This document shows positions 104 through 47,310 of a stretch of 64,000 nucleotides of DNA, in pieces. The position numbers and the translations under genes are program-made. This DNA is from Mustelus asterias. Its lineage: Eukaryota. The notes beneath the pieces were generated by a model. The model searched no databases and was not told the DNA's origin. It saw nothing but the letters and a program-made list of their open reading frames with translations. The DNA lies in contig NC_135808.1 of the NCBI RefSeq assembly GCF_964213995.1, forward strand, positions 50,282,001 through 50,346,000, read 5' to 3'. The first letter of the stretch is position 1. Each line of letters starts with the position of its first letter.

Positions 104-197
104 GGAAGTGAAAGGTGCTGACGTGGTTTCTCTGGGTCAGACCATTTACAAACTGAGGAACAGGCAGTGAGACTCTGACAGGCTGCAGCTTTATAAA
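104..197 (+). promoter_or_regulatory. IgL kappa cluster A promoter (Ets-IRF composite site, CRE-like site, degenerate octamer, TATA)
   Basis: GGAAGTGAAA 104-113, TGACGT 119-124, ATTTACAA 144-151 and TATAAA 192-197 lie upstream of the leader ATG at 258. The same motifs are mirrored in cluster B. Confidence 0.7.
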
Positions 198-257
198 GCA
201 GAGCCCAGTGAAGGGAGAGTTTATCAGTAACCAGGCACAGGGACACGACCACACACC

Positions 258-306
258 ATGATTTCAGCCATCCAGCTGCTCTGGCCTCAGGCATTCTGCA
301 TCGCAG
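258..306 (+). CDS. Ig kappa-type light chain leader exon, cluster A (MISAIQLLWPQAFCIA-G)
   Basis: ccATG at 258, hydrophobic signal peptide, phase-1 donor G|GTAC at 307. Identical to the cluster B leader except CTG>CAG (L>Q). Confidence 0.9.
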
Positions 307-439
307 GTACAAATCTCTCTCCTTCCACCTTGAATATTTTCCTGCTCTCCATTTCAATCCAATTCTCCTGACTTGTGATTGAAGGGAAAATGCTGAAAGG
401 AGAGGAACAGTCAGTGTCTCCAACAATATCTCATTGTAC

Positions 440-1036
440 CACCTCCTGTACTGACACATCCCACAGTTTTATATAATATATAATAATGGACACACAGTCC
501 CACCTCCTGTACTGACACATCCCACAGTTTTATATAATATATAATAATGGACACACAGTCCCACCTCCTGTACTGACACATCCCACAGTTTTATATAATA
601 TATAATAATGGACACACAGTCCCACCTCCTGTACTGACACATCCCACAGTTTTATATAATATATAATAATGGACACACAGTCCCACCTCCTGTACTGACA
701 CATCCCACAGTTTTATATAATATATAATAATGGACACACAGTCCCACCTCCTGTACTGACACATCCCACAGTTTTATATAATATATAATAATGGACACAC
801 AGTCCCACCTCCTGTACTGACACATCCCACAGTTTTATATAATATATAATAATGGACACACAGCACCACCTCCTGTACTGACACATCCCACAGTTTTATA
901 TAATATATAATAATGGACACACAGTCCCACCTCCTGTACTGACACATCCCACAGTTTTATATAATATATAATAAAGGACACACAGTCCCACCTCCTGTAC
1001 TGACACATCCCACAGTTTTATATAATATATAATAAA
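440..1036 (+). repeat. 61-bp minisatellite, ~10 copies (V-J intersegment, cluster A)
   Basis: Unit CACCTCCTGTACTGACACATCCCACAGTTTTATATAATATATAATAATGGACACACAGTCC starts at 440, 501, 562 ... 989. Confidence 0.97.
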
Positions 1037-1221
1037 GACAAGAAAGGAAACTGGACAAATTATTTGCACTGTCCACTACACACTCCAGTCCCTGTGGTGT
1101 CCACCGCTCGCTGAAGGCCTCGAGTTTCCCTCTTACTCTCCATGTCCACATATGAAGAGCAGCTGAAAGATTTATCATCTCAAATTAGAATTCTCAACTC
1201 TCCCGACAAAACACTGAGACA

Positions 1222-1335
1222 TTGAGAGAAACAGAGAGAGAGAAACAGAGAGAGAGAAAGAGTGAGAGAGAAAGAGTGAGAGAGAAAGAGTGAGAGAGAA
1301 GAGATGAGTGAGTGAGTGAGTGAGGCAGAGAGCAG
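1222..1335 (+). repeat. GA/GAGT-rich microsatellite directly upstream of the J RSS
   Basis: (GA)n/(GAGT)n runs. A shorter counterpart is at ~44540-44610 in cluster B. Confidence 0.85.
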
Positions 1336-1336
1336 A

Positions 1337-1375
1337 GGTTTTTGTACAGCTCCTGCACTGGAAGCTGTCAGTGTG
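1337..1375 (+). other. 23-bp-spacer recombination signal sequence of J (cluster A)
   Basis: GGTTTTTGT (1337-1345), 23-nt spacer, CAGTGTG (1369-1375). Confidence 0.95.
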
Positions 1376-1410
1376 CCTTACGTTCGGTAAAGGAACCAAA
1401 CTCAGACTGA
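1376..1410 (+). CDS. IGKJ: Ig kappa-type J segment, cluster A (LTFGKGTKLRL)
   Basis: FGxG motif after the 23-RSS. Phase-1 donor A|GTAAGT at 1411 is compatible with the C exon. Confidence 0.95.
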
Positions 1411-2264
1411 GTAAGTAAAGCCCAATCCTCCGTTATTAACCCTTTCAATGCTGAAACTTTCTCAAACACAAATGCTGAATAGTTGAAGGTGTTGGTGAGG
1501 AAGCTGCAGTCAATGAAATGGTTGATTGAAGAACATTGTGTGGAACAGGGAGCCCAGCTGTATTTCTTTCCTTCCATTTCCCCCTTTAAGCAGCAAGATA
1601 TAAGTAAGCAGCTTTTACCCACCGTGTGGAGGAGATCTGGACGTTTGCAGACTGTGCTCACATTCCTGCAGCATGGAGTGAAATCACTCTCTAGACTCCT
1701 GTCAGTCTCAGTGTGACACACACAGGCAGAGTTTGATGTGAAGTCGGACTCCCTGTCACACTCTCTGGTATAACTGATCACAGCACCAGCACAGTGAGAC
1801 ACCGAGGTGCCACCTCCCCCAGCTTTCACTCTGCTCTCTCCACTCCCTGCTTATCTCTTGCTAAAGTTCTGATGACAAACAGCTACAGCAGGGCCCACAA
1901 TCCAGTGGCTTCAGTGTTCCAGGCTTTTGGGGAGACTCTCAGTTACTTTCTCTTTGGGACGAGTTCAGTCCGATATTTATCCCGGATCCAACATCACTGA
2001 AAATGCTGATTGTTCTCATTGCTGTGTGTGGGATCTTGCTGTGTACACGTTGTGACCAATCCTCAGACAAGGTCCCTCATTTGTTAACTTCCTGAACCCG
2101 ATCCCAATTTTGTTTTGCTCCTGGGTGAGGAGTAATCAGCTGGATCCCTGACTTTATTCAACCCCGCCCTCGATTGGTCACAACAAGGTTCATTTAAAAT
2201 GGATCCCTTCACCCGTGGAAACCTTACACAGTCCACGTAATCCTTTATTCGCCTTTGAATCTCT

Positions 2265-2590
2265 ACAGTGCAGAAGGAGGCTGTTCAGTCCATCGAATCT
2301 GTACCAACTCTCTGAAAGAGCTTCTTACCCAGGCTCCCCACCCTATCCCTGTAACCCTGCGCATTTACCATTGCTAATCCACTTAAAGAACACACTCGGG
2401 GCATTTTAGCATGGCCAATCCATCTAACCTGTATTGAATTTTGGGAGGAAACTGGAGCACTCGGAGGAAACCTACACAGACATCAGGTTAACATGCAAAC
2501 TCTACACAGGCAGTGACCCGAGGCCTGAATTGAACCCAGGTCCCTGGCTGTGAGGCGGCAGTGCTAATCACTGTGTCAACATGCCGCCGC
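2265..2590 (-). mobile_element. HE1/V-SINE-like tRNA-derived SINE
   Basis: Reverse complement of the tRNA-like head and V-domain core (GTGTAGAGTTTGCATG...GTTTCCTCC). A truncated orthologous copy is at ~43420-43630. Confidence 0.8.
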
Positions 2591-2719
2591 TCTTTTAATT
2601 TTTTAGAAGGAATTATTTTAACCAGGTTTTCTTGAATACGTTTATTAGTTACTAAATACCTGAGAAAATAATCAACATGTGAAACGCACACACTCTCGCA
2701 CTGACTAGAAATGAAAAGT

Positions 2720-5340
2720 ATGAGGAGAGGTTGACTAGGTTAGGATTGTTTTCGCTGGAGTTCAGACGAATGAGGGGGTATCTCATAGAGACTTATAAAA
2801 TTCTAGCGGGATGAGACAGGATAGATACAGGGAGGATGTTCCCGATGTTGGAGAGTCCAGAACCAGTCGCAGTCTGAGGATTCAGGCTAGACCATTTAGG
2901 ATGGAGGTGAGGAGACATTTCTTCACCCAAAAAGTGGTGAGCCTGTGGAATTCATTGCCACAGGAAGCAGTTGATGCCAAAACATTGAATGTATTCAGGA
3001 GGCGGCTAGATATAGCACTTGGGGTGAATGGGATCTAAAGTTATGGGGAAAAGGCAGAATTAGGCTATTGAGTTGGATGATCAGCCATAATCGTAATGAA
3101 TAGTGGAGCAGGCTCAAAGGGCCAAATGGCCTCCTCCTGCTCCTATCTTCTGTGTTTCTGTGTCTATGTTTCTACGTTTTCATAATTCTGTCTTGCTGCA
3201 GTTATACAGGGCCTTGGTGAGGCCACACTGGGAATATTGTGCACAGTTTTGTTCTCCTTATCTGAGGAAGGATGTTCTTGCTCTACATGGAGCGCAGACC
3301 AGGTTTACCAGACTGATTCCTGCGATAGTGGGACTGACGTATGAGGAGAGATTGAATTAGTTAAAGTTTATATTCACTGGAGTTCAGAAGAATGAGGGGG
3401 GAACTCAGAGAAACCTATAAAGCTCTAAAAGGTTCGGGGGATTAGTGAGGTAAATACATGGGGTTATGGGGTAAGAGTCGATGCAGACTCGATTGACCAA
3501 ATGGACTCCGCCTGCACTTTAGGGATTCTATTGTCCATGTCTGTGCCGGCCACCAAGCACCTATCTATTCCAATCCCATTTTCCAGCCCTTGGTCCGTTG
3601 CCTTGTTTGCTTTGGAATTTATCTAAATGCATCTTAAATGTTGTGAGGGTTCCCACCTCCACCACCCTTTCAGGCAGTGAGTTCCAGATTCCCAACACCC
3701 TCTGGGTGAAAAGATTTCCCTCAAGACTCTCAAAATCTGCTGCCTCTATAATGAAGGGAAATGGTTCCTCGTATCTGTCTTGCTGCAGTTATAGTAAGAT
3801 GTCGATATGCGCGATCTCCTTGGAGATTCTCTCCACTTGGAGCCCCAGTTGCGGTGTCGATGGTAGCCATGATATGGAGATGCCGGCGTTGGACTGGGGT
3901 GTCCAATGCCGGCATCGCCACATCATCGCTGCAGTTATCCAGGGCCTTGGTGAGGCCACACTGGGAATATTGTTTGCAGTTTTGGTCTCCTTATTTGAGG
4001 AAGGATGTTTTTGCAACGGAGGGAGCACAGCAAAGGTTTACCAGACTGATTCCCGGGATAATGGACTGATGTAGGAGGAGAGATTGTTTTGGTTAAGATC
4101 ATATTTGCTGCAGTTCAGAAGGATGAGGGGAATCACATAGAAACCTATAAAATTGTAACAGGACTAGACATGGTAGTTGCAGGAAGGATGTTCCCAATGG
4201 TGGGATTGTCCGTGGTGGGTTCCGTGGTGGGTTCCAGGGGTCACAGTCTGAGGATACGGAGTAAACCTTTTAGGACTGAGGTGAGGAGAAATTCCTTCAC
4301 CCAGAGAGGCGTAAACCTGTGGAATTCACTACCACAGAAAGCAGTTGAGGCTAAAATATTGTATGTTTTCAAGAAGGAGTTAGATTTAGGTCTTGGGGTG
4401 AATGGGATCAAAGGATTTAGAGGTAAAGCAGGATCTGGATACTGATTGGATAATCAGCCATGATCATGGTGAATAATGGGGCAGGCATGAAGGGCTGAGT
4501 GGCCTCCTCCATCTCCTATTTTCTGTGATTCTATGCAGACCAGCATTTATTACCCATCCCTAATTGCCCTGGTGAAGATGGTGCTGAGGTGGTGGAATAA
4601 GTTCTACTCCAATGAGTATTGGCCCAACCTGCTCAAGCTTTCCTCATAAGACAATCCATTACTCAGTGGAATCAGCCTCGTGAATCTTCTCTGAACTCTT
4701 TCCAATGCTACTATATCCTTACTTGGGAATGGAGACCAAAAGTGTCCACAATATTCCAGGTGTGATCTTCCCAACGTGCTGTACAGCTGGAGTAAGACAT
4801 CCCTACTTCTATACTCATCCTCATTGGAATGAAGAACAACATTCCATTTGCCTTCCTAATTTTTTGCTGTTCCTGGATGCAAAGACACACAGATCACTCG
4901 ATAGAATCTCTCCAGTTTACTAGTATTCTGCTCTATCCTCTTGCCAAAGTGGACAACCTCACAATTTCCCACATTATACTCCATCAGTCAATGTTTTCCC
5001 ACTCACTGAATCTACCTCTATCCCTTTTCAGACTCTGTATTCACCTCACAACTTGCTTTCCTACTAATCATTTTACCATCAGCAAATTTAGCGACAATCC
5101 TCTCATTCCCTTCATCCAGCTCATTAATATAGATTGTAGAGTTAAACCCCAAACAACAACCATCTTCCTATGTGCTGGGTATAACTCCAGCCAGCACAGA
5201 GTTTTCCCCCCTGATTCCCATTGACTCCAGTTTTGCATGGACTCCTTGATGCCACACTTGGTCAAATCCTGCCTTGATGTCAAGGGCAGTCACTCTCACC
5301 TCACCTTTGGAGTTCAGCTCTTTTGTCCACGTTTGAACCA
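2720..5340. mobile_element. Stack of old CR1-type LINE 3' fragments in the J-C intron (largely shared with cluster B 40300-42650)
   Basis: ORF fragments 'LVRPHWEYCAQF', 'FFTQKVVSLWNSLP' and 'YEERL' are typical of CR1 ORF2 C-termini. Confidence 0.8.
3793..3927. mobile_element. Short hairpin-ended Penelope-like insertion
   Basis: TSD GCTGCAGTTAT at 3782-3792 and 3928-3938; inverted repeat 3871-3924; empty site in cluster B (~42005-42020). Confidence 0.6.
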
Positions 5341-5344
5341 TCTG

Positions 5345-6015
5345 GGAAAAAGCTTCCCACCGTTCACCCTATCTGTGCCTTTCATAATTTTATACACCTC
5401 TATTAGGTCACCCCTCATCCTCCGTCTTTCCAGTGAGAACAACCCCAGTTTACCCAATCTCTCCTCATAACTAAGCCCTTCCATACCAGGCAACATCCTG
5501 GTAAACCTCCTCTGCACTCTCTCTAAAGCCTCCATGTCCTTCTGGTAGTGTGTGGTGACCAGAACTGGGCGCAGTATTACAAATGCGGCCAAACCAACAT
5601 TCTATACAACTGCAACATCAGATCCCAACTTTTATACTCTATGCCCCGTCCTATAAAGGCAAGCATGCCATATGCCTTATTCACTACCTTCTCCACCTGT
5701 GACGTCACCTTCTAGGATCTGTGGACTTGCACACCCAGGTCCCTCTGCATATCTACACCCTTTATGGTTCTGCCATTTATCATATAGCTCCCCCCTACGT
5801 TAGTTCTACCAAAATGCATCACTTCGCATTTATCTGGATTGAACTCCATCTGCCATTTCTTTGCCCAAATTTCCAGCCTATCTATATCCTTCTGTAGCCT
5901 CTGACAATGTTCCTCACTATCTGCAAGTCCAGCCATTTTCGTGTCGTCCGCAAACTTACTGATCACCCCAGTTACACCTTCTTCCAGATCATTTATATCA
6001 ATCACAAACAGCAGT
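5345..6015 (-). mobile_element. CR1-type LINE ORF2 fragment, private to cluster A
   Basis: 'DLEEGVTGVISKFADDTK' RT motif. Same subfamily as the 56820-59210 copy. Confidence 0.88.
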
Positions 6016-6039
6016 AACAGCAATAACATTGTGAATAAT

Positions 6040-6570
6040 CAAGATTAGACTGATGGGATGGTTATTGTGTGGATTGGATTTGTCCTGTTTGATGTGGACA
6101 ATTCATAACCAGGCAATTTTCCACATTGCCGGGTTGATGCCAGTGTTGTACCTGCACTGGAACAGCTTGGCTCGGGGCATGGAATGTTCTGGAGCACTAG
6201 TCTGCAGGACTTCCGGAGGAGGTCGAGCTGGATCATCTACTCGGCACTTCCGGCTAAAGATTACTGTGAATGCTTCAACCTTATCTTTTGTACTGATGGG
6301 CTGGGCTCCTCCATCATTGAGGATGGGGATATTTGTGTTGCCTCCTCCTCCAGTGAGTTGTTTAATTGTCCACCACCATTCACTGGATATGGCAGGACTG
6401 CAGAGCTTTGATCTGATCCATTGGTTGTGGGATGGTTTAGCTCTGTCTATCACTTGCTGCTTCTGCTGTTTGACACACAGTCCTGTGTTGTAGCTTCACC
6501 AGGTTAACACCTCATTTTTCAGTACATCTGCTGTTGCTCCTGCCATGTCCTCCTGCACTCTTCATTGAAC
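6040..6570 (-). mobile_element. Fragment of a second LINE family (CR1/L2-group-like)
   Basis: 'SEWWWTIKQLTGGGG.TNIPILNDGGAQ' is shared with 39640-40500 and 52880-53110. Confidence 0.7.
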
Positions 6571-8073
6571 TGAAAGCAGCAGAGAATCCACAGAAACGGA
6601 ATGATGCTTCAAATCCCACTCCTGAGATGGTGGTGGCAGATGCTATACAAATGTATTTCTGTCTTCGAGCTTGTGGATTCCTGATCCTTGCCCATTGTCC
6701 ACACACTCGCAGCCTCCAGGGTTCATGGGGGCTTTTGGAACAGTGACCCTGACTGATCCCCGGACACTGGGACTAATTCTAGCCTCACCCTTAAACTCAG
6801 CCAAGTGCTGTGCGGTAAGGTTTGCAATGAAATCTAGAAGCTTCTACACTGACAGCCAATCAGAATCCTGTGTGAACTGTGTTGATCCAAGTCTGCTGCA
6901 ATGTTCTGGGATAAAGTTCTCCTGATCTGTGTGTGATCTGTGGTTTGTTGATGCTCAACCTGTTTCCCCCAGACAGACTGAACAATAGTTCCAGCTTCCT
7001 GACTGGTTAACAGTCTCTTAAAGGGACACTGTGTCTTTAAATACTCTCACTATTAACCATTTCAGTGCTGAATTTGTAGTAACCTTCTTTACAAATGTTT
7101 CAGTAACATTGCAAAATGATTCAACCAGCTTCAAATCAAACCTTTACCCCCAGACACTGAACTACTTTGAAATCCAACTTGTCACTTTCCCTCGGACCCC
7201 ATCAGCTTTTAATTTTAAACAATGGTACAGCATTATCCGTCCTCCAGTCCTCCCACACCACACCTGTAGCCAGAGAGGATTGGGAAATAATGGTCAGAGT
7301 CTCTGCTTTTTCTTCCCTTGCTTCCCTTCGCATCCTGGGATACATTTCACCTGGGCTTGGGAATTTTTCCACTTTCAAAGATGATAAGAACATTAATATC
7401 TCCTCCCACACTATCATTATCCCATTAATTATTTCACAATCTCTCTCCTCCTGAAGTACAATGTCAGCTTTGTCCCTCTCATTTGTGATATCGAATGTAA
7501 ATTATTCGTTCAGAACCATCTCTGTGCCTTCCCCCTCCACACACAAGTTACCTTGTTGCTCTCTAATCAGCCCTATTCATTCCTTAGTTATCCTCTTTGC
7601 AATGTCCCACGCTATTGCTTTGTTTGAACATATTTGTTCTGAACTCTATCTCCAGCTCGAATATCCTCCCACTGCTCTGACACTGATTTACCTTCAAGTC
7701 GCTGTTTCCGGTTCATTTTGCCAAATTCCAGTTGAGTGAAATTGGCCTTTCCCCAAGTTAAAACATTTACCCTTGATCGATCTTTCCTCTTTTCCATAGC
7801 TACTCGAAATCGTTAACTTTATGATGATCATTATTACCCAAATGTTCCCCCACTCATACACCTTCCAGCTACCCAGATTTGTTCTCTAAAATTACCCAAA
7901 ACTGCCCCTTCTCTTGTTGGGATTGTTCCGTACTGGTTAAAAAATTTCCCTGGAATAGATTTTCGGAATTGTGCAATGTTGAAACATTGACACTGATTTG
8001 ATCCCAGTCAATATTCGGGAAGTTGAAAACCCTGAAAATGGCAGTGATTAAAATTCCTTCTCTTCTCTTTCAG

Positions 8074-8402
8074 CCCGTGAGAATTCACAACCCACGCTGA
8101 CCCTGCTGCCCCCCTCCCCGGAGGAGGTCAAGACCAAGGGCACTGCCACCCTGGTGTGCCTTGCCAATCACTTCTATCCCGATGAGGTGGAGGTGAAGTG
8201 GAAGAAGGACGGTGCAGCCATTTCCAACGGGATTCAGACCAGCAACTACCTGCGAGCTTCAGACAACACCTACAGCGTCAGCAGCCTGCTGACCCTCTCT
8301 GGCTCCGACTGGGAGTCCAACGCCCGCTTCTCCTGTGCCCTCACCCACGTCAGCCTCTCCTCGCCCCTCAGCAAGAGCGTCAGGAGATCAGAATGTGCCT
8401 AG
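8074..8402 (+). CDS. IGKC: Ig kappa-type light chain constant exon, cluster A
   Basis: Acceptor TTTCAG|CC. Protein RENSQPTLTLLPPSPEEVKTKGTATLVCLANHFYP...W...FSCALTH...SECA* is a C1-set domain with the penultimate interchain Cys and an open frame. Confidence 0.96.
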
Positions 8403-8886
8403 AGTGTTAGAGACAGTCCACAGAGGAGACACAACTTGGAATAGAACAGGGGTGAGCTGGGAGGGCAAAGGTCACTGTCAGCATTGAATTACAACTCTCT
8501 TCTTTCTCGGGACTGGGTTAGAGACACTTCTGAGGGTCAGGGGTTAAAGCACATTATTGGAGCAATGCAGAGGGAGCTTTACTCTGTATCTAACCTCATG
8601 CTGTACCTGGCTTGGGACTGTTTGATAGGGACTGTGTAGAGGGAGTTTTACTCTGTTCCTGTTCTGGGACTGTTTGATGGGGACAGTGCAGACTCGTGAT
8701 AACAAGTACAACCTCTGGAAGATGCTGAAGAGTGTCAGCTGTACAATAATAATGTGACCCTGTGAAGTGTCTGCTTCAGTAAACCAGACCTCCTTCCTGC
8801 TCACCCTGCAGTTACAATTGAAGCTTTAGTCACTGTTTAAAGGGACAGGATTCTCATGTTATTGAGAAAATCTCCACAAGTGTTTT

Positions 8887-8975
8887 AATAAACCTCCATT
8901 CTCCCTGTGAATTTCTCCAGCTTCCTCTGGCTGGGCTGTTTTTTCTGTCAATGTCAATGTGTAAAAGGTAATAAA
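8887..8975 (+). terminator. Polyadenylation signals of cluster A
   Basis: AATAAA at 8887-8892 and 8970-8975, the second followed by a GT-rich tract. Mirrored in cluster B. Confidence 0.7.
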
Positions 8976-9644
8976 CATTAAGAATATTCAGTTTCTGTCT
9001 GGTGAGTGCTTTGGAAATGTCCCACCTCCCCATCAGCTGATTGGCTGCATTTCACCAAGTGATTGTCCTGATTGGCTGCTTGGCCTGTCAATCAATGACA
9101 CATCAGCAGAAGATTGGATTCAAAGCCAATGATCATTCATTTGAAAATGATCAGTTTGATCTGGAATCTCTTGAGTGACAAGATTGAAAACAGAGAAGAA
9201 ACTGAAAGTTGCTGGGATTAAACCATCACAATCACAATTCTCCACCCCATATTCACCACCTCCCTCTTGACCTTAACCATCTCACGTGGTCTCACTGCTC
9301 CCATAGTTTCAATCAGAGATAAGACCATCTCTGATCACTTCCTTGTATCACTCCCCAGCCACATCCTCCTTCCACACCCCCAACCCTACCCCCTTCTGTA
9401 TCCATCCCTTCAAAAACCTATTCCCCAATTCACTTACAACCGCACTTTCCAAATCCCATCTATCTTAAATTTCATTTTACCAGAAGCCAGTTTATTCTCA
9501 GACCAGCTGAGCAGAGAGAAAACCCCTTTGTTTCTCCACACCCAACTCTTCCAGCTGTGTCCATTGATCATTGAGCCAATGATCATCACTTGTCTTCATC
9601 AATCTAATTGGATGAACAATATAAATATCAAAGGATAATGTAAC

Positions 9645-34019: not shown

Positions 34020-34370
34020 GTTGTGTGTGTGGTGTGTGTGTGATGCCTCCCATGGTTNNNNNNNNNNNNNNNNNNNNNNNNNNNNNNNNNNNNNNNNNNN
34101 NNNNNNNNNNNNNNNNNNNNNNNNNNNNNNNNNNNNNNNNNNNNNNNNNNNNNNNNNNNNNNNNNNNNNNNNNNNNNNNNNNNNNNNNNNNNNNNNNNNN
34201 NNNNNNNNNNNNNNNNGTGTGTGTCTGTTTTCGTGTGTGTGTGTGTGTGTGTGTGTGATGCTACCTGTTGTTGATGAGCTGGGAGTTGTGTGTGTTTGTG
34301 ATGCCTCCTACGATCGATGAGCTAGGAATTGTGTGTGTGTGTGTGTGATGCCTCCTGTGATTGATGAGGC
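34020..34370. repeat. GT-rich minisatellite spanning an assembly gap (N run 34058-34216)
   Basis: (GT)n...GATGCCTCC units on both sides of the N run. Confidence 0.85.
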
Positions 34371-44793: not shown

Positions 44794-46744
44794 TTTATTA
44801 TATATTATATAAAACTGTGGGATGTGTCAGTACAGGAGGTGGGACTGTGTGTCCTTTATTATATATTATATAAAACTGTGGGATGTGTCAGTACAGGAGG
44901 TGGGACTGTGTGCCCATTATTATATATTATATAAAACTGTGGGATGTGTCAGTACAGGAGGTGGGACTGTGTGCCCATTATTATATATTATATAAAACTG
45001 TGGGATGTGTCAGTACAGGAGGTGGGACTGTGTGTTCATTATTATATATTATGTAAAACTGTGGGATGTGTCAGTACAGGAGGTGGGACTGTGTGTCCAT
45101 TATTATATATTATATAAAACTGTGGGATGTGTCAGTACAGGAGGTGGGACTGTGTGTCCATTATTATATATTATATAAAACTGTGGGATGTGTCAGTACA
45201 GGAGGTGGGACTGTGTGTCCATTATTATATATTATATAAAACTGTGGGATGTGTCAGTACAGGAGGTGGTGCTGTGTGTCCATTATTATATATTATATAA
45301 AACTGTGGGATGTGTCAGTACAGGAGGTGGGACTGTGTGTCCATTATTATATATTATATAAAACTGTGGGATGTGTCAGTACAGGAGGTGGGACTGTGTG
45401 TCCATTATTATATATTATATAAAACTGTGGGATGTGTCAGTACAGGAGGTGGGACTGTGTGTCCATTATTATATATTATATAAAACTGTGGGATGTGTCA
45501 GTACAGGAGGTGGGACTGTGTGTCCATTATTATATATTATATAAAACTGTGGGATGTGTCAGTACAGGAGGTGGGACTGTGTGTCCATTATTATATATTA
45601 TATAAAACTGTGGGATGTGTCAGTACAGGAGGTGGTGCTGTGTGTCCATTATTATATATTATATAAAACTGTGGGATGTGTCAGTACAGGAGGTGGGACT
45701 GTGTGTCCATTATTATATATTATATAAAACTGTGGGATGTGTCAGTACAGGAGGTGGTGCTGTGTGTCCATTATTATATATTATATAAAACTGTGGGATG
45801 TGTCAGTACAGGAGGTGGGACTGTGTGTCCATTATTATATATTATATAAAACTGTGGGATGTGTCAGTACAGGAGGTGGGACTGTGTGTCCATTATTATA
45901 TATTATATAAAACTGTGGGATGTGTCAGTACAGGAGGTGGTGCTGTGTGTCCATTATTATATATTATATAAAACTGTGGGATGTGTCAGTACAGGAGGTG
46001 GTGCTGTGTGTCCATTATTATATATTATATAACACTGTGGGATGTGTCAGTACAGGAGGTGGGACTGTGTGTCCATTATTATATATTATATAAAACTGTG
46101 GGATGTGTCAGTACAGGAGGTGGGACTGTGTGTCCATTATTATATATTATATAAAACTGTGGGATGTGTCAGTACAGGAGGTGGGACTGTGTGTCCATTA
46201 TTATATATTATATAAAACTGTGGGATGTGTCAGTACAGGAGGTGGGACTGTGTGTCCATTATTATATATTATATAAAACTGTGGGATGTGTCAGTACAGG
46301 AGGTGGTGCTGTGTGTCCATTATTATATATTATATAAAACTGTGGGATGTGTCAGTACAGGAGGTGGTGCTGTGTGTCCATTATTATATATTATATAAAA
46401 CTGTGGGATGTGTCAGTACAGGAGGTGGGACTGTGTGTCCATTATTATATATTATATAAAACTGTGGGATGTGTCAGTACAGGAGGTGGGACTGTGTGTC
46501 CATTATTATATATTATATAAAACTGTGGGATGTGTCAGTACAGGAGGTGGTGCTGTGTGTCCATTATTATATATTATATAAAACTGTGGGATGTGTCAAT
46601 ACAGGAGGTGGGAGTGTGTGTCCATTATTATATATTATATAACACTGTGGGATGTGTCAGTACAGGAGGTGGGACTGTGTGTCCATTATTATATATTATA
46701 TTAAACTGTGGGATGTGTCAGTACAGGAGGTGGTGCTGTGTGTG
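44794..46744 (-). repeat. 61-bp minisatellite, ~32 copies (V-J intersegment, cluster B)
   Basis: Reverse complement of the 440-1036 unit, with two main variants (GGTGGGACTG / GGTGGTGCTG). Confidence 0.97.
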
Positions 46745-46748
46745 TTGG

Positions 46749-46776
46749 GGTTTTTGTAAGGCTCTGTATCACTGTG
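46749..46776 (-). other. 12-RSS of V (cluster B), perfect consensus
   Basis: Minus strand CACAGTG-ATACAGAGCCTT-ACAAAAACC. Confidence 0.97.
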
Positions 46777-47075
46777 TAGAGGGAAGCTCTGACGTTGCTG
46801 ACAGTAATAATCAGCGACATCCTCATTCTGTACATTGCTGATTGTCAGGGTGAATCTTGTCCCAGATCCACTGCCGGTGAATCGGTCGGATATTCCTGTG
46901 AATCGATTTGATGCATCGTAGATCAGCAGAGCCGGTTTCTGTCCTTCCCGCTGTTGGTACCAAGCAACATAGTAACTGACAGATTGACTGGCCGTACAGG
47001 TGATGGTGGCGGTCTGGCCCAGGCTCACTGACAGCACCGGGGGAGACTGGGTCATGATGATGTCTCCACTGATAC
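46777..47075 (-). CDS. IGKV: Ig kappa-type (NS4-like) V exon, unrearranged, cluster B
   Basis: [27 protein letters not shown]...[15 protein letters not shown]...[15 protein letters not shown]. Conserved Cys/Trp/Cys; acceptor CTCAG at 47080-47076; kappa-type 12/23 polarity. Confidence 0.96.
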
Positions 47076-47261
47076 CTGAGGGGTAATAGAGAAACAGAGT
47101 GAAGTAAGAACTGTCACAGAAAGACGCTGTACAATGAGATATTGTTGGAGACACTGACTGTTCCTCTCCTTTCAGCATTTTCCCTTCAATCACAAGTCAG
47201 GCGAATTGGATTGAAATGGAGAGCAGGAAAATATTCAAGGTGGAAGGAGAGAGATTTGTAC

Positions 47262-47310
47262 CTGCGATGCAGAATGCCAGAGGCCAGAGCAGCTGGATGG
47301 CTGAAATCAT
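47262..47310 (-). CDS. Ig kappa-type leader exon, cluster B (MISAIQLLWPLAFCIA-G)
   Basis: ATG at 47310; phase-1 donor in frame with the V exon. Confidence 0.93.

Follow-up and report, generated by a model that had tools for sequence, protein, structure and literature searches.

A shark kappa-type light-chain minicluster without V exon and 12-RSS, probably a young pseudo-cluster carried by segmental duplication

The kappa-type light-chain genes of sharks, NS4 in nurse shark and type III in horn shark, are described as miniclusters with a leader, a V exon carrying a 12-spacer recombination signal sequence (RSS), one J carrying a 23-spacer RSS and one C exon (PMC2193156, PMC5192425). The same accounts report pseudogene clusters in the NS4 family, with stops or with bad splice or RSS signals, and PMC2193153 treats germline and inter-cluster RAG events. 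For the sterlet, PMC5985310 describes the light chain IgL4, whose J has typical AG/GT sites and no functional RSS; it is documented by cDNAs, has its VL partner in a separate gene and is conserved over ~185 million years. Surrogate light chain (SLC) genes are reported by PMC9614664 to be found only in eutherians. Here we analyse a window of 64,000 nucleotides (nt) from Mustelus asterias (NC_135808.1, positions 50,282,001 to 50,346,000), meaning that whole stretch, in which two shark kappa-type clusters point in opposite directions, A (258-8402, plus strand) and B (47310 to ~37500, minus strand). Cluster A is a shark kappa (NS4/type III) minicluster without V exon and 12-RSS.

Weighing the array, the trees, the splice signals and the public read contigs, we regard cluster A as a young V-deleted pseudo-cluster carried by segmental duplication, a reading to which we assign a probability of about 0.72. 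The first-pass annotation, made from this sequence alone, had raised a V-less surrogate-like light chain, with a recent pseudogene named as an equal option; the latter now fits best, given that the former rests on features common to all clusters and that intactness is expected at this age.

A deletion present in three clusters

Cluster A belongs to the shark immunoglobulin (Ig) kappa family by the 23-spacer RSS on its J, the 12-spacer RSS on the V of its paralogues and a C1-set exon of the family with a C-terminal Cys. It keeps its promoter, leader, 23-RSS, J, open C exon and polyA signals; these parts, together with both splice donors and the C acceptor (AG at 8072-8073), were already listed as retained in the first-pass annotation and were all found in place. 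The RSS has its nonamer at 1337-1345 and its heptamer, CAGTGTG, at 1369-1375, with an AG at 1370-1371. What a functional kappa cluster would have, an own V exon with a 12-RSS, is gone from A: compared with intact cluster B at least 396 bp are absent, a minimum since further minisatellite units may have been lost as well. The earlier statement that only V had disappeared thus holds for the V exon (299 nt), yet the loss also takes in the 3' end of the leader intron (53 nt, including the acceptor), the 28-nt 12-RSS and 16 nt of spacer.

At the junction (438-439), where 1-2 nt of microhomology are present, the leader intron runs directly into one of the 61-bp units of the V-J minisatellite. One breakpoint lies in the leader intron and the other at least 14 nt past the V-side nonamer, perhaps only 14-16 nt beyond it. 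Because neither break falls at an RSS heptamer, the junction is not a RAG joint, and RAG joining was rejected as the direct cause. A failed germline RAG break is nevertheless a possible trigger, as the deleted segment spans the V-side RAG cut site.

Cluster A is part of a kappa array of 0.9 Mb (C8:50.17-51.09 Mb), in which 22 C exons, 18 V exons and 21 leaders were counted, all lower bounds from one genome. The same deletion, looked for elsewhere as the first-pass annotation had advised, is not unique to A: the exact junction occurs in three of the 21 leader-bearing clusters (A, C8:50507827 and C8:50582557), all of which retain J and an open C. These three form one clade with a support of 0.99 in the J-region tree and 1.0 in the C-region tree. 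In the J region they show 0-3 differences from one another and at least 11 from any intact cluster; the corresponding figures for the C region are 0-9 and at least 65. The tree of the 380-nt leader region, from which cluster 51008568 was excluded owing to an insertion, did not resolve them. For the ungapped J-to-C comparison only the 31 differences after ~1305 were used, a microsatellite indel shifting the register before that point.

Cluster A and copy 50507827 are 99.79% alike across 51.6 kb, and A and copy 50582557 are 98.5-99.5% alike around the gene; the V-less copies have 10, 10 and 14 minisatellite units, the 14 belonging to the third copy, 50582557. Copies 50507827 and 50582557 resemble a ~75-kb tandem unit, with an intact neighbour as part of it (99.7% across 19.7 kb). 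Taken together, the shared junction and the trees imply that the deletion arose once in the germline and that segmental duplication then carried it to three places.

Five bases in the 3' untranslated region (3'UTR), 8503T, 8519T, 8520A, 8565A and 8596T, are private to the V-less clade and found in none of the 19 other C exons. The only private coding change is a leader Leu>Gln, which the first-pass annotation had correctly seen in A; it is present in two of the three V-less copies and in none of the 18 intact clusters, with codon 11 reading CTG in 19 of the 21 clusters and CAG in A and one other copy, so that CAG is not diagnostic of cluster A as had been supposed. By hydropathy computation the change lowers the best 9-residue value from 2.28 to 1.68, and the third copy (50582557) keeps the normal Leu. 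Base 8459A distinguishes this third copy, and leader base 289A the other two. The C-exon bases proposed as further markers, ATT (at GIQT) and AGG (at SVRR), occur together in seven of the 22 C exons and do not identify A either. Its C exon has one identical copy, at C8:50515751, and differs from the other 21 C exons by 0-8 nt. At the three C-exon positions where A and the third copy differ, every allele is also found in intact clusters, which is the pattern expected from gene conversion.

Table 1 Features of cluster A and of its intact neighbour (window coordinates).
Feature	Position	Strand	Remarks
Promoter region	108..257	+	octamer-like ATTTACAA at 144-151 (presumably an octamer); TATAAA at 192-197
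Leader exon	258..306	+	49 nt, phase 1; codon 11 is CAG (Gln)
Leader intron, surviving 5' part	307..439	+	donor GTACAA; acceptor gone
Deletion junction	438..439		AC microhomology; at least 396 bp gone including V and 12-RSS; recurs in 2 further clusters
61-bp V-J spacer minisatellite	439..1035		9.8 copies in cluster A; 4-59 units elsewhere
J 23-spacer RSS	1337..1375	-	heptamer CACACTG on minus strand; no 12-RSS partner within cluster A
J segment	1376..1410	+	donor GTAAGT at 1411; sequence identical in 21/21 clusters
Kappa-type constant exon	8074..8402	+	open, with C-terminal Cys; Pfam C1-set, E 2e-23
3'UTR	8403..8990	+	AATAAA at 8887 and 8970
Intact neighbour cluster B	46749..47310	-	leader, 186-nt intron, V exon 47075-46777, 12-RSS; reference for the losses in A

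Some features of the array stand apart from the deletion. The V-J minisatellite (window 439-1035 and 44795-46743) ranges from 4 to 59 units in the 21 clusters, which gives intact clusters V-J distances that differ by a factor of about six. Cluster 51008568 has an insertion of ~407 bp in its leader intron (V at +642 instead of +235) and a J-C intron of ~15.6 kb. All 18 V-containing clusters of C8:50.17-51.09 Mb are unjoined in the germline and have an open V exon; in nurse shark NS4 some clusters are joined. A run of 159 N (window 34058-34216) lies outside cluster A.

Splice frames, signals and intactness

The suggestion of a surrogate-like chain had been built on two splice frames, leader to C with its C-terminal Cys and leader to J-C through the AG of the J heptamer. 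Both are indeed open in cluster A, and equally so in all 21 clusters, because all introns are phase 1. The heptamer CAGTGTG, described earlier as non-consensus, is the norm of the family (21 of 21) and lies within a perfect germline RSS23/RSS12 signal joint inside cluster 50404046 (minus strand; C8:50402740-50402810), between two V-J spacer copies; it is therefore a genuine RAG site. Cluster 50404046 still has its unjoined V and J, and no other such joint was present in the array stretches examined. The surrogate-chain clues are thus array-wide features, not special to cluster A, and the surrogate-chain reading is weak.

As an acceptor the heptamer AG is poor, in agreement with the weak pyrimidine tract noted before: it has nine pyrimidines in 17 positions, an AG upstream and rank 20 among the 81 AGs between leader and J, whereas the real acceptors of V and C have 14 and 17 pyrimidines of 17. 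An IgL4-like gene would be recognised by a dedicated J acceptor and a lost RSS; here the RSS is intact and the heptamer AG is common to all 21 clusters. The predicted leader-J-C product would gain an unpaired Cys from the heptamer, and the V-less copies lack the last part of the signal peptide (G-I-S-G), which V encodes and which is the cleavage region. Between leader and C the predicted products carry no more than 13 residues, and they have neither the N-terminal unique region nor the GPRC motif of lambda5.

The good preservation of the V-less copies would be expected from their age. In a neutral simulation with an assumed indel rate, the frame, the Cys codons and 26 signal bases survived together with frequencies of 0.83, 0.65, 0.53 and 0.28 at 0.25, 0.5, 0.75 and 1.5% divergence, suggesting that intactness at this age is no sign of function. 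An open kappa C exon at C8:50977572, preceded by 55 kb in which neither a leader nor V, RSS or J occurs, indicates that broken members persist in the array; a leader-like 18-mer upstream of this orphan exon was rejected as a chance match in unrelated sequence.

Several observations weigh against a mere relic. Clade-private changes number five in 588 nt of 3'UTR and none in 329 nt of C exon, where 2.8 would be expected (P ~0.06), a contrast that gives weak support to constraint; purifying selection before the deletion and gene conversion would each yield the same pattern. Furthermore, the V-less gene has been copied and kept, with one copy bearing a normal Leu leader, and the promoter of cluster A is unchanged, the 150 nt preceding ATG being identical in 19 of the 21 clusters.

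Transcripts and competing explanations

Expression was assessed in assembled contigs of public runs that carry no tissue record, seven of 24 runs being examined, of which X5, X9 and X11 carry other organism labels; such contigs drop rare variants, so that non-appearance in them cannot show absence or silence. The J-C joint 1410^8074 (GT..AG) is present in contigs of three of four runs, the sole leader contig of X4 runs on into V with a normal leader-V splice, and in all four runs the C contig and the J-C joint contig between them account for the whole depth of bin 7996-8251. No leader-C, leader-J or intron-C contig occurred among the contigs examined, which hide rare forms and leave a leader-C transcript possible; with the leader and J-C halves compared separately, a 306^8074 joint could appear only as a loose end, and among the loose ends listed there was none at 1372 or 8074. 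A protein search with the C domain (59-189 amino acids) gave three matches among 17 candidates, none of them leader-C. Two database proteins, one listed under Aeromonas veronii with 97% identity to the C domain and the other under Salmonella enterica with 84%, are fragments of shark kappa V-J-C and probably reflect contaminated bacterial assemblies.

The young pseudo-cluster that we favour would have arisen from a germline break sealed by end-joining or template slippage at the 1-2 nt microhomology inside the 61-bp minisatellite, the deleted cluster then being duplicated with its neighbours to three loci. Cluster A would be unable to rearrange within itself. If its promoter is active in B cells, the strong acceptor of C would be the most likely splice partner of the leader donor, yielding a low-level leader-C transcript as a by-product, the same product being available from any intact cluster by skipping V and J. 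Its parts would look intact owing to the youth of the event and probably also to sequence exchange among the clusters of the array.

A partnerless J-C could also serve as acceptor for inter-cluster V-J joining by inversion, producing a normal kappa chain with the C haplotype of A, which we consider unlikely. The arrangement would permit it, as A stands head-to-head with an intact minus-strand cluster (V ~32 kb upstream of the J of A) and tail-to-tail with cluster B (V ~45 kb away), and RAG inversion could join either V; 23-RSS, J, C and polyA signals are intact, clusters mostly alternate in orientation along the array, and the signal joint in cluster 50404046 is the reciprocal product expected from a join between clusters or chromatids. 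That joint, however, may stem from sister chromatids or homologues, and with J identical and C nearly identical in all clusters little diversity would be gained. A single possible exception among 97 aside, nurse shark IgH is described as rearranging inside its minilocus (PMC2435157). The clade bases at 8519, 8520 and 8565 were not seen in the RNA contigs, from which rare variants drop out, and all three X4 contigs across 8519/8520 carry bases other than those of cluster A, which for the same reason counts only weakly against such joining. Still less probable is that the deletion is an assembly error at the minisatellite edge or private to one haplotype. The junction does adjoin a tandem repeat, and the DNA contigs X1-X3 (organism A) run from the leader intron into V-containing sequence, with no bridging piece, deletion junction or Gln allele among the pieces listed; contig cleaning, however, removes minor branches into high-copy repeats, and these contigs hide all other minor alleles too. 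A base-exact junction at three loci with their own flank divergence (0.2-1.5%), arrays of 10, 10 and 14 units and clade-private bases speak against an error, which would need to have struck these three related clusters and no others. A pure assembly error is unlikely, and a false duplication of A and copy 50507827 is possible: as a separate matter, these two differ by 0-1 base per 3 kb over ~18 kb and could be two alleles placed in tandem.

We hold it to be very unlikely that the three V-less copies encode a dedicated chain of leader-C or leader-J-C form, independent of rearrangement, which would pair in B precursors with IgM CH1 and act in the manner of lambda5, of sturgeon IgL4 and of human JC-kappa, a further V-less precedent. 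The open frames, the retained C-terminal Cys, the intact promoter, the presence of three copies, one with an intact leader, and the lack of any private C-exon change would all agree with such a role, and precedents are described in sterlet IgL4 (PMC5985310) and in V-less shark IgW transcripts (PMC5192425). Against it stand the lack of a dedicated J acceptor and of a lambda5-type N-terminal region, the lost signal-peptide end, the Leu>Gln in two of three copies and, in the leader-J-C form, the unpaired Cys. In addition, the clade is 0.5% old, whereas IgL4 is described with 83-90% protein identity over ~185 million years (PMC5985310), and V-less kappa is reported to cause death by endoplasmic reticulum stress in mouse plasma cells (PMC6941761). 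Equally slim is the chance that a V-less gene, above all the copy with the Leu leader, makes a leader-C chain with IgM CH1 that is lambda5-like and new by convergence in cartilaginous fish.

Meaning and comparison with known systems

As a pseudo-cluster, A represents ordinary gene birth-and-death, yet in a clean form: a single deletion is present in three copies, and the array also contains a relic reduced to its C exon. It is also a natural reporter, being a J-C without its own V and marked by five private 3'UTR bases. Rearrangement between clusters, reported not to occur in shark IgH miniloci (PMC2435157), would be revealed by a V-J-C mRNA with the clade bases, and a leader-C mRNA with these bases would show a V-less chain. 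A surrogate role, if true, would bear on how fish test heavy chains without lambda5 and VpreB, named as an open question in PMC5192425. A V-deleted shark kappa cluster was not found in the literature by title or abstract opening, a search that left most subscription papers outside its scope.

Cluster A and its neighbour resemble the miniclusters of NS4 and type III in their leader, their 12-RSS on V (present in the intact paralogue) and 23-RSS on J, and their single J and C; the 186-nt leader intron of B is likewise similar, and the published JL5 primer of the shark kappa family matches the J at 17 of 18 bases (PMC2193156, PMC5192425). Unlike the NS4 pseudogenes described there, cluster A has lost V and 12-RSS in the germline, through a junction off the RSS, and has been triplicated. 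Sterlet IgL4 sigma likewise has leader, J and C exons and lacks a V between the first two (PMC5985310), but the J of cluster A keeps its RSS and has no proper acceptor, no V-less transcript was seen in the contigs examined, and the clade is only ~0.5% old. With lambda5 (IGLL1) and human JC-kappa, the predicted chain of cluster A would have in common a V-less light-chain C domain, the heavy-chain-linking Cys and independence of rearrangement. Measured against the definition in PMC9614664, its predicted products differ from lambda5 in having no N-terminal unique region or GPRC motif. The likeliest product of A would resemble the kappa chains that lose V through skipping of its exon (PMC6941761) and the V-less IgW of sharks (PMC5192425), in which the leader is spliced to the first constant exon; unlike those chains, which are described as arising by alternative splicing of V-containing genes, in cluster A the V is missing from the DNA itself.

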